Shown here in pieces: positions 15,178 to 17,220 of a stretch of DNA of 17,220 nucleotides. Location: positions 407,232 to 424,451 of the forward strand of contig JBOEGD010000001.1 in NCBI GenBank assembly GCA_050633245.1, in the 5' to 3' direction. This stretch comes from Calditrichia bacterium. Lineage in GTDB: Bacteria; Calditrichota; Calditrichia; RBG-13-44-9; J075. Within the stretch, counting starts at the first letter, position 1. Every line of letters starts with the position of its first letter. The notes beneath the pieces were generated by a model, which did not search any database, was not told the DNA's origin, and saw only the letters and a program-made list of their open reading frames with translations. Both the position numbers and the translations under genes were made by a program.

Positions 15178-16713
15178 ATGATAGCAAGGATATATTCTGC
15201 CGCATTGTTGGGTATAGATGCGAATCCGGTTGAGGTAGAAATCAGCCTTGAACGGGGATTGATGACGGTTGCGATTGTTGGCTTACCAGATTCTGCAGTG
15301 CGGGAAAGCCGTGAGCGTGTCATTGCAGCAGTTCGCAATAGCGGTTATGAGTTTCCAAACCGCCGCATCACCATTAACCTTGCTCCGGCAGACATTCGTA
15401 AGGAAGGCTCCGGTTATGATTTACCCATTGCCATTGGTATTCTGACAGCAAGTGGAATTGTCGCAGAAACGCGGTTAGCTGAGACCTGGATTATCGGGGA
15501 GTTGGCGCTTGATGGCGCACTGAGACCGGTGCATGGCGTCTTATCGCTTGCCTGGGAGGCGCGCCGGAAAGGAATTAAATCATTACTTGTGCCACCAGAG
15601 AACGCTCCGGAAGCAGCCATGGTGCGAGAGTTAACCGTCTATCCGGTGCAAAATCTGCGAGAAGCGGTAGACTATCTGAATCACGATGCCGATCCTGAAC
15701 CGTGTGTGGTAGACGTTAAGCAGATGTTTGAGAATGAGCGTCGCTCTTTGGTAGATTTCCATGACGTGAAGGGGCAGGAGCACGTGAAGCGAGCACTGGA
15801 GGTTGCTGCTGCTGGCGGACATAACATCATTATGGTTGGTCCACCAGGGTCTGGAAAAACCATGCTGGCGAAGCGCTTACCGACTATCCTTCCTTCTATG
15901 ACTCTGGAGGAAGCACTGGAGACGACCAAGGTCTATTCTGTTGCCGGATTGCTGCCGCCTGATCAGGCGATCATTGCCGGCCGGCCTTATCGCTCACCGC
16001 ACCATACAATTAGTGATGCCGGCTTAATCGGAGGAGGGAAGTATCCGCGTCCGGGCGAGGTAAGCTTGAGTCATCATGGCGTCTTGTTTTTAGATGAACT
16101 TCCGGAGTTTAAGAAAAATGTGCTGGAGGTGATGCGTCAGCCATTAGAGGATTCATCTGTCACTATTGCCCGTGCGGCATTAACTATTTCTTATCCGGCG
16201 AATTTTATGTTGGCAGCGGCGATGAACCCCTGCCCATGCGGCTACTACACTGACACCACGCGCGAGTGTCAGTGTGCTCCGCCGCTGGTTCAACGCTATA
16301 TGCAGCGTATTAGCGGTCCATTGTTAGACCGCATCGACATTCACGTCGAGGTACCGGCAGTGCAGTACGAAAAGTTGGTGGGGCAGGGCGGCGGAGAATC
16401 GTCGGAGGTCATCCGCGCTCGCGTTCAGCAAGCCCGTGAGCTGCAAACAAAGCGCTTCGATAGGCAAAATCATCTTTTCTGCAATGCTGACATGCAGCCA
16501 CGAGAAATACGTAAATTCTGTAAAATCGACGAAGAAGGCTCAAAGTTGCTGCGAGCTGCCATTGAGCGCCTGGGGCTCTCGGCTCGTGCCTACGACCGTA
16601 TCCTGAAGGTCAGCCGTACCATTGCAGACCTGGCAGGCAGCGAGAAGATCCTGCCCGATCATGTGGGCGAGGCGATCCAGTATCGAGGTTTGGATCGGGA
16701 AGTTAGGGGATGA
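15178..16713 (+). CDS. comM: ComM/YifB Mg-chelatase-like AAA+ ATPase (natural transformation helicase)
   Basis: [39 protein letters not shown], Walker [19 protein letters not shown], Walker [26 protein letters not shown] and [19 protein letters not shown]. The gene is full length (511 aa). Confidence 0.95.
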
Positions 16714-16868
16714 GTGTGATAGAATGGTAATCCCCCCGAAAAATAGTGCTATTTTAAAATAAAAATAAACCTCATGATGATTCACTTTAGCTTCTATCTG
16801 GATGAGTGAAATTGATTCTGTTATTGCCGAATTAAAAGCTCTCCTCTGTCCCAGGTTTTCTGAGAAAA

Positions 16869-17198
16869 TCATTCAAATAAGTTATCAAATACTAAGCCTT
16901 TTAAAAACCCGCCACTTGATTTTACTACACTTACTTCCTTTGTAGTAACAACTGCATGGGTGCCCGTGCAGTCCGTAGTTACAAAATCATGATTGAAGGC
17001 ATAAATAGAATAATCGATCCATTTATCACCGACTACAACTTCATCTAAAACTGTGCGAACCAGCTCTCTTTGATCTTGGAATTCGAGAGAATCATATACT
17101 TCCGCGAGCGAACTAAACTGATTCAATGTGAACTCAATGTCAATGTTTGAAACATCTTGAGAGTCCACTTTTGTTTTTAATTGTTCAATTTCTTCTTC
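16869..17198 (-). pseudogene. C-terminal fragment of a probable large serine recombinase (integrase), truncated upstream
   Basis: The frame reads EEEIEQLKTKVD (coiled-coil end) ... FSSLAEVYDSLEFQDQRELVRTVLDEVVVGDKWIDYSI, resembling the tail of large serine recombinases. There is an in-frame TGA at 17208-17210, and no catalytic domain in the window. Confidence 0.55.
16940..16984. mobile_element. Putative attP-like site of a comM-targeting large serine recombinase
   Basis: Imperfect inverted repeat ACTGCATGGG-TG-CCCGTGCAGT (9/10 arm match) with outer TTGTA...TACAA. The core TGCCCGTGCAG matches comM TGCCCATGCGG (16231-16241) at 9/11. Confidence 0.55.
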
Positions 17199-17220
17199 TG
17201 TAAGTCGTCAAAATCTCCCG
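17199..17220. mobile_element. Possible terminus of an insertion sequence (TG-start terminal inverted repeat, IS3-like)
   Basis: TGTAAGTCGTCAAAATCTCCCG begins exactly where the recombinase-like frame breaks. Only 22 nt are visible. Confidence 0.3.

Follow-up and report, generated by a model that had tools for sequence, protein, structure and literature searches.

Durrant et al. described elements with large serine recombinases (LSRs) of the phage or integrative and conjugative element (ICE) type, which insert within a coding sequence at a conserved motif and carry the attP site next to the 3' end of the integrase gene (bioRxiv 10.1101/2021.11.05.467528). The conserved target gene of these elements appears to belong to the ComM/YifB family. 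comM is a recurrent target of mobile genetic elements (MGEs), often of elements that carry defence systems, and its possible salvage by recombination has been discussed (PMC11472951). The ssrA islands of Dehalococcoides lie in tandem 3' of a single-copy target gene and are bounded by repeated att sequences. They have a serine integrase module beside attL, and many of their units lack an integrase ("cis-mobilizable" units, accretion) (PMC3146451). The comM locus analyzed here resembles both systems. It lies in a stretch of 17,220 nucleotides from a Calditrichia bacterium (the window; GCA_050633245.1, JBOEGD010000001.1, positions 407232–424451), whose end is also the end of the contig (C1).

An intact comM gene near this end contains the attB site of an LSR family, and an attP-type site of the same family follows downstream, inside the 3' stub of an LSR gene. 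In the elements described by Durrant et al., the target is split into attL and attR, as it is in four metagenomic relatives found in this study; in contrast, the target is intact here, the attP-type site lies in cis, and the integrase is a stub. In the most probable history, LSRs inserted islands into comM in a tandem (accretion) array, which has since decayed and of which this locus is the chromosome-proximal end. Another contig of the same assembly (C15) carries further copies of the element-end module described below and pieces of the comM 3' part. Both sites had been recognized in an original prediction made from the window alone, and they were borne out. The array, the insertion sequence (IS), and the repeated-module nature of the left arm of the attP-type site were not part of that prediction.

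The crossover site in comM

comM (15178..16713, plus strand) encodes a ComM/YifB Mg-chelatase-like AAA+ protein of 511 residues. The three Pfam domains ChlI, Mg_chelatase, and Mg_chelatase_C (E-values of 2.5e-46 to 6.5e-97) are all present in one full-length open reading frame (ORF), and residues 1–508 align along the full length with the proteins of nine genomes of the same family at 71–75% identity. The gene is intact, as predicted. The site AACCCC-TG-CCCATGCGGCTACTACA is located within the NPCPCG codons, with its TG at 16231–16232, and the crossover position is 482 bp before the stop codon. The attB site (16207..16256, plus strand) consists of a B arm on the comM 5' side, the central TG, and the B' arm CCCATGCGGCTACTACA. 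We designate this site J1 and the dyad of the attP-type site J2; three further junctions, J3, J4, and J5, are located on C15.

Three independent lines of evidence indicate that the TG at 16231–16232 is the crossover of this LSR family and that the comM site is a real attB: the C-terminal tails of related integrases, the attL sites in metagenomes, and an attR site at J4. When the LSR frame is read through the core into antisense comM, it yields eight codons and a stop (RGSSPLPT* in the window), and the pattern [RK][GD]S[WSL]...[AT]* is found in the comM genes of 13/13 relatives. A tail of this type ([RKM][GD]S....[AT]-stop) ends eight of the 15 non-self homologues of the stub (RGSWQRPA in two, RGSWRRQA, RGSSPRRT, RGSLPQPA, MGSLPQRA, MDSSRTLA, and KDSSLQPA); the other seven end otherwise.

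A metagenome scan gave 20 loci, six of which hold a full-length LSR relative together with DNA past its stop. Antisense comM abuts the LSR stop in four of the six (L044, L046, L047, and L049), and it comprises residues 1–354/355 in L046 and L049, 1–365 in L047, and 328–354 in L044, which is a short contig. These junctions read ...ATGAAYCCC-TG-CCC[GA]TGCG.T.GTAA..TACAAAA, namely the comM B arm, TG, and a P' arm like that of the window. Simple integration thus splits comM in these relatives, as the original prediction had said of normal integration. The other two loci, L043 and L051, are in other states. The element interiors of the metagenomic relatives have nothing in common with this genome.

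The attR site was found on C15. J4 reads ...TTGTAACTAGCGACTGCACGGG-TG-CTCCTGCGGCTACTACACTGAC..., where the P arm TTGTAACTAGCGACTGCACGGG precedes comM sequence. C15 84786–84732 begins at the TG and corresponds to window 16231–16285 with 89% identity. The breakpoints of the hybrid sites are located at the central dinucleotide, both in attR at J4 and in attL of L044, L046, L047, and L049.

In the metagenome runs coded X1 and X3, short contigs that are approximately 90–96% like the comM 3' part start or stop at 16229–16232. Two such contigs from X1 end at 16232; one is fragmentary and skips 248 nt internally (16320–16567). As seen in these contigs, the ends may weakly hint that relatives branch at this att core too.

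The attP-type site, the integrase stub, and the contig end

The dyad TTGTAGTAACAACTGCATGGG-TG-CCCGTGCAGTCCGTAGTTACAA has its TG at 16961–16962, 730 bp 3' of the comM TG and on the same strand; it lies within the minus-strand ORF 16869–17198. The attP-type site (16939..16984, plus strand) is composed of the P arm TTGTAGTAACAACTGCATGGG, the TG, and the P' arm CCCGTGCAGTCCGTAGTTACAA. The P' arm is like those of the four metagenomic attL sites, and P arms recur at J3, J4, and J5. The direct orientation of the two sites, the match of their cores (TGCCCATGCGG vs TGCCCGTGCAG) at 9/11 positions, and the outward shift of the outer TGTAGTA motif by 3 nt in the dyad arm (spacer ACAACT vs GCC) were all found as predicted. 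The dyad arms pair at 9/10 positions around a 2-nt spacer and share the core TGCCC with the comM site. The dyad is imperfect, its central dinucleotide is non-palindromic, and attB and attP are alike only near the core, as is usual for LSR att sites, which are dyads of about 40–50 bp. By itself, the palindrome is only modest evidence: an inner palindrome of 9/10 was reached by 30/1000 shuffles of 16714–17198. The dyad is nevertheless solid, because the homology of the module to its left stops at its centre, comM is joined at this point in one copy, and the four metagenomic junctions have the same TG.

This module (16727..16960, plus strand, approximately 234 bp) was delimited by BLAST and alignment. 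Three more copies with 72–80% identity lie in the same orientation on C15, at about 95093–94857, 84964–84785, and 69588–69350. In the four-way alignment, homology extends only from 16727 to the dyad centre. To the right of the centre, each copy is different: the LSR stub follows at J2, comM from 16231 at J4, comM from approximately 16293 at J3, where the core and approximately 60 nt are deleted, and CCCATGCAGCGCAT... and then unrelated DNA at J5. Since homology ends at the dyad centre and the right side differs from copy to copy, the module represents the P-side end of an element family. Judging from the alignment, the window dyad is a P-O-P' junction, in which the module (P) and the 3' end of the LSR gene (P') flank the TG. 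The predicted attP is thus an attP-type site whose P' arm is like those of the four attL sites.

The C-terminal tail of the LSR would vary with the state of the DNA, consisting of 31 module-encoded residues in attP and of eight residues from antisense comM in attL. The LSR frame of the other module copies retains a peptide similar to the SVVKSSGGFL motif of the 31-residue tail. The relative in L051 reads on in frame into a helix-turn-helix (HTH)-like segment and has 637 residues. A plus-strand ORF of 50 residues in the module was rejected as a gene because it is not conserved in the other copies.

The left block of the module (16727..16772, plus strand) is like the left end of an IS3-like element, and the same motif occurs elsewhere in the assembly. 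The first ~45 nt recur at C17:19013, where a degenerate orfA (MKKSRFTESQ...) follows, and at C18:27366 and C14:187877. Solo copies of this motif lie upstream of unrelated genes. A k-mer scan also revealed an exact 38-nt repeat (16922..16959), which is identical to C15 69350–69387 in the P arm of the module copy at 69.3 kb (module 69.3k). Outside this 38/38 patch, the two modules are 50–85% identical per 20-nt bin. Searches of the window and of the C15 copies found no tRNA or tmRNA. An Rfam scan of 16500–17220 gave one sub-threshold snoRNA-like match, which was taken as chance.

The ORF that spans the dyad centre (16869..17198, minus strand) is a 3' stub of an LSR gene. It has approximately 79 native codons (17198 to approximately 16963), and 31 further codons (16960–16872) and the stop are contributed by the module; the frame from 17198 to 16872 encodes 109 residues. 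A Pfam search with the 112-residue stub peptide gave nothing above threshold, with no Resolvase (PF00239), Recombinase (PF07508), or zinc ribbon (PF13408) domain. The peptide was identified only by an exhaustive phmmer search, which confirmed the predicted recombinase homology with 16 matching proteins, including the ORF of the window itself. The E-values ranged from 6.5e-35 to 4.4e-4, and the best homologue, P0002, is 92% identical over residues 1–76. The stub aligns to the extreme C-terminus of homologues of 519–594 residues. Among 11 homologues scanned for domains, five have Resolvase, Recombinase, and Zn_ribbon_recom, two have the last two, one has the zinc ribbon only, and three short fragments have none. 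The stub is homologous to the C-terminal region of LSRs beyond the coiled coil, and it lacks the catalytic, recombinase, and zinc-ribbon domains.

The N-terminal part of this LSR gene was not found in the whole assembly, which is 97% complete, by tblastn with P0002 and another homologue, P0011. Only unrelated LSRs with 22–32% identity were detected, on C12, C17, and C25. Given the C-terminal homology and the lack of an N-terminal part in the assembly, the ORF is evidently the 3' remnant of an LSR gene and not a functional member of the family. C17 (47 kb) has a GC content of 38%, compared with approximately 45% elsewhere, and is bounded on both sides by the IS3-family element described below; it carries another LSR-like gene at 42828–43736.

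The original prediction had regarded the integrase as broken. This part stands, but the cause is different: the apparent stop codon at 17208–10 lies in a terminal repeat of an IS3-family element, which cuts the gene. The last 22 nt of the window (17199..17220, plus strand), at which C1 ends, are the terminal inverted repeat of a multicopy element of approximately 1.5 kb. Only this end is present in the window; on contig C51 the element has an orfA with HTH_Tnp_1, an orfB with an rve DDE domain, and TG...CA terminal repeats, as in the IS3 family. The 22 nt also occur at the ends of C8, C15, C17, C18, C24, and C37 and on the IS contigs C51 and C52. The partner of the window end was not found when the IS-flanked contig ends were paired by target duplication. 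No contig end has the complement of the TTC flank, which is compatible with an IS-associated deletion. The ORF at the end of C8 is an unrelated TPR lipoprotein paralogue.

The IS3-family element causes at least eight contig ends. On C8 (58740–64443), three paralogues of a secreted TPR-repeat protein lie in tandem, and the third is cut by the same element after ...AQTELYQI. Many other contig ends (e.g., of C2, C3, C5, C9, C20, and C29) consist of tandem heptamers (GTTCTGT, CGGTGAG, GACTGCC, CACTTTT, and others), which suggests that short tandem heptanucleotide arrays are abundant in this genome.

The island array and the probable history of the locus

In the orientation of the window, C15 contains an IS end, cargo, a module, J5, cargo, a module, J4, a comM remnant, 15 kb of cargo, a module, J3, a comM fragment, and an AraC-type gene. 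The comM 3' remnant at J4 (84786–84680) retains only the parts corresponding to 16231–16285 and 16658–16709. The fragment at J3 (69352–68940) corresponds to 16286–16699 with 78.6% nucleotide and 82–87% amino acid identity, and it has one in-frame stop and one frameshift. The third version is the segment that completes the gene in the window (16233..16713, plus strand; the B' unit). The identity is 0.79 between the window and J3 (405 nt), 0.89 between the window and J4 (45 nt), and 0.80 between J3 and J4 (50 nt). With the relatives they share less (0.50–0.67, and 0.53–0.67 for the window segment) than with one another, and the three versions differ by 11–28%. The amino acid identity is high relative to the nucleotide identity; therefore, the displaced 3' ends diverged as working genes before they were displaced. 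An element-borne complete comM was considered and rejected, since the assembly contains only one comM 5' part.

A census of arms over the whole assembly found one B arm, one P' arm, B' arms at J1 and J4, and P arms at J2, J4, and J5, plus J3. No attL was detected by this arm scan, and C15 contains no recombinase gene of this LSR family. J4 is a clean attR, J3 is an attR with its core deleted, and at J5 the module is joined to unrelated DNA. Several units in the same orientation are thus bounded by att-type junctions, and most of them lack their own recombinase, as in an accretion array. The cargo (C15 69650–100536) encodes a 956-residue TPR-CHAT protein, a 717-residue subtilase, three trypsin-like proteases, one of them with EAD1, and a 653-residue fusion of trypsin and a non-specific endonuclease; Pfam gave no match for 13 of the 21 ORFs scanned. 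By its gene content, the cargo looks like conflict or defence genes.

The reading favoured above, a decayed array at comM, involves the following history. On at least two occasions, comM appears to have been split and then completed again by a new 3' end, because two displaced and diverged comM 3' ends are present on C15. At each re-completion, the old 3' end would have been left behind an island relic. The 730-bp unit (comM 3' end, 13 nt, and module) would be the last relic, stripped of its cargo; on C15, a larger unit of like form extends from the J4 comM remnant to module 69.3k. The LSR island would then have joined the module of the old relic and not comM, either by homologous recombination in the 38-nt P-arm patch or by a non-canonical exchange between attP and the old attR. 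The incoming DNA would have been a circular composite island with an attP composed of module 69.3k, TG, and the LSR end, and the recipient would have had the order comM, module, old attR, and old comM 3' end. All of the sequence from the LSR stub to J3 lies between the 38-nt patches, which is the footprint that would be expected of such a join of a circular island. Either route would spare comM, so that attB and, downstream of it, attP would both stay intact. This agrees with one of the two explanations offered in the original prediction, namely entry of the island by a route that left comM unharmed.

An active LSR requires no cofactor for attP x attB recombination (PMC12286644). An active cognate integrase would delete 16233–16962 and leave the comM 5' part, TG, and the LSR gene. 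Because the integrase alone recombines attP and attB, the pair is stable only without its cognate enzyme, and the loss of the integrase by IS3 truncation fits the frozen attB and attP in cis.

Several observations weigh against this history. The adjacency of the comM stop codon, the 13-nt spacer (16714..16726), and the module is explained by no site-specific step; it would take a deletion that was not observed, or a join that was illegitimate or guided by IS ends. The spacer is not homologous to what follows the stop codon of the J3 and J4 comM fragments. It is speculative, but the IS3-like left block may have been the homologous stretch by which the module came to lie 13 nt behind the comM stop codon. 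Tandem arrays are also not expected from the canonical chemistry of attP x attB. Beyond approximately 10 nt, J5 has no recognizable B' or P' arm, and its right side is unexplained. The nearest homologue, P0002, ends with ...FVTSAVSNK and diverges approximately 12 nt before the dyad centre, a state that is likewise unexplained. The same IS repeat closes both C1 and C15, but their flanks share no target duplication (TTC vs GAT), the C15 end does not encode the missing part of the LSR, and the link is not assembled. The synteny 3' of comM is not kept in six relatives and points to neither the chromosomal continuation nor the native comM 3' end; C15 received a single match of 255 nt, from one of them.

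The reconstruction also rests on one assembly, and close relatives were found neither for the module in the DNA of 40 related genomes, which gave a single 25-nt match, nor for the LSR in the proteins of 85 genomes of the class, which contain no P0002-like LSR at E<=1e-20. A search with P0002 returned only distant Bacillota LSRs from genome contigs and none from metagenome contigs, and a search with an alignment had no match in viral contigs.

The order of the locus itself would be different if the assembler had mis-joined two modules at the 38-nt repeat. The module next to comM would then really continue to the core-deleted attR and the comM fragment, and module 69.3k would lead into the attP and LSR stub; both sites would remain real, but the distance of 730 bp between attB and attP would not hold. 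Whether the P arm is correctly joined depends on how the assembler resolved this repeat, because the repeat is exact over 38 nt, ending 1 nt before the core, and the ends of contigs overlap by approximately 22 nt. The overlap is 22 nt in 56 of the 84 overlapping end pairs and 21 nt in 18, a pattern that a k=23 graph would give; other contig breaks lie at short heptamer arrays. Furthermore, no public run contains the stretch: the best run contained 7% of the sampled words, and the contigs of three runs covered only comM and nothing from 16729 onward. However, both contigs run through the repeat, which implies read support, and 38 nt is far below an ordinary read length. The assembled order is one simple path (C1, IS, and C15 reversed), whereas the swap would leave a 32-kb piece bounded by IS on both sides. 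We consider a mis-join unlikely.

Two other explanations accept the assembled order. The 730-bp unit might be a minimal mobile "repair cassette" for comM without a recombinase, with the units of comM 3' end, optional cargo, and module being satellites of comM-targeting LSR islands, an interpretation to which we give a low probability. A similarly improbable route would bring it in as an attR-like circle (module-TG-comM 3' end), inserted into a resident attL by an LSR with a directionality factor, so that comM is healed and attL is converted to attP. The predicted product of this exchange has exactly the observed order of attB, comM 3' end, module, attP, and LSR. No comM-related sequence reaches more than 13 nt past the stop codon, which would suit a trimmed surrogate, and the second unit on C15 has a comM 3' remnant at its start and a module at its end. 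The GC content at third codon positions (GC3) of comM also jumps at the crossover, from 0.493 on the 5' side to 0.613 on the 3' side, compared with differences of -0.09 to +0.05 in 10 relatives. This jump is a weak hint toward a replaced 3' end; the J3 fragment is also GC3-rich (0.59), so that the jump does not tell which copy is native. However, the C15 unit has attR-type junctions on both sides instead of attB and attP, and the module also ends three cargo-bearing units with no comM 3' end beside it. The product would be deleted again by the integrase alone once the directionality factor was gone, and no such factor, circle, or second 730-bp unit was found. If this explanation were true, the resident island would have been locked in place by the conversion of attL to attP.

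Alternatively, as the original prediction also proposed, attB and attP may be held in cis as a one-way switch, now frozen, in which the integrase removes the 3' third of comM and thereby shuts competence down for good. The direct orientation of the sites permits this, since recombination would delete 16233–16962 and truncate comM, and the inactivation of comM by MGEs is reported to be common (PMC11472951). However, the integrase is a 3' stub and not an intact, regulated recombinase, and the left arm of attP belongs to an element-end module that occurs in repeated copies, three of them closing other island units. This genome, a decayed array, shows repeated re-completion of comM instead of programmed loss, and the layout is absent from all four relatives with resolvable comM junctions (4/4), which are plain attL. 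Moreover, an active LSR would delete the 730 bp at once; a poised switch with a working enzyme is therefore excluded unless expression is tightly controlled, and no such control is shown here. This part of the prediction was not upheld, and we regard the switch as very improbable. Apart from the case in which the repair unit is real, the locus is an inert relic and not a new mechanism.

Comparison with known islands

In the Dehalococcoides islands, the crossover is at the very 3' end of ssrA, within a 20-bp repeat, and the gene is never split (PMC3146451), whereas here the crossover is well inside the gene. Because of this mid-gene crossover, each re-completion requires a whole new 3' third of comM, and the old 3' ends pile up behind the islands. 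The composite SCC islands at rlmH/orfX are comparable tandem accretion islands of serine recombinases. The prophages e14 and 21 at icd supply a substitute 3' end for their target and leave the original 3' end as a pseudogene fragment at the far junction; they use tyrosine integrases and a long attP homology. Unlike e14 and 21, no element here is shown to carry a comM substitute in its attP. LSR elements also interrupt genes that are restored by excision, such as skin (SpoIVCA) at sigK, SPbeta (SprA) at spsM, and the XisF element of Anabaena. As in these systems, the LSR site lies within a coding sequence, and the state of the gene is set by recombination. However, they rest as attL and attR with an intact integrase, whereas here the gene is whole, the sites are unrecombined, and the integrase is gone.

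The locus provides a full att set for one clade of comM-targeting serine integrases, with attB, the attP-type site, and attR in one genome and attL in relatives. Together with intact relatives of the integrase (e.g., the proteins behind L046 and L047), the site pair is a candidate orthogonal integrase/att system. The comM hotspot can gather recombinase-less, defence-like islands while the host keeps comM intact by means of new 3' ends, and this re-completion bears on the debated conflict between MGEs and natural transformation. Targeted searches of the open-access literature found no description of an attB/attP pair in cis at comM. Islands of comM-targeting LSRs in an accretion array are of an already known kind, of which this locus is a well resolved, inert example. 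What is new is the combination of a mid-gene target that was repeatedly re-completed, old 3' ends stacked behind it, and a surviving pair of attB and attP.

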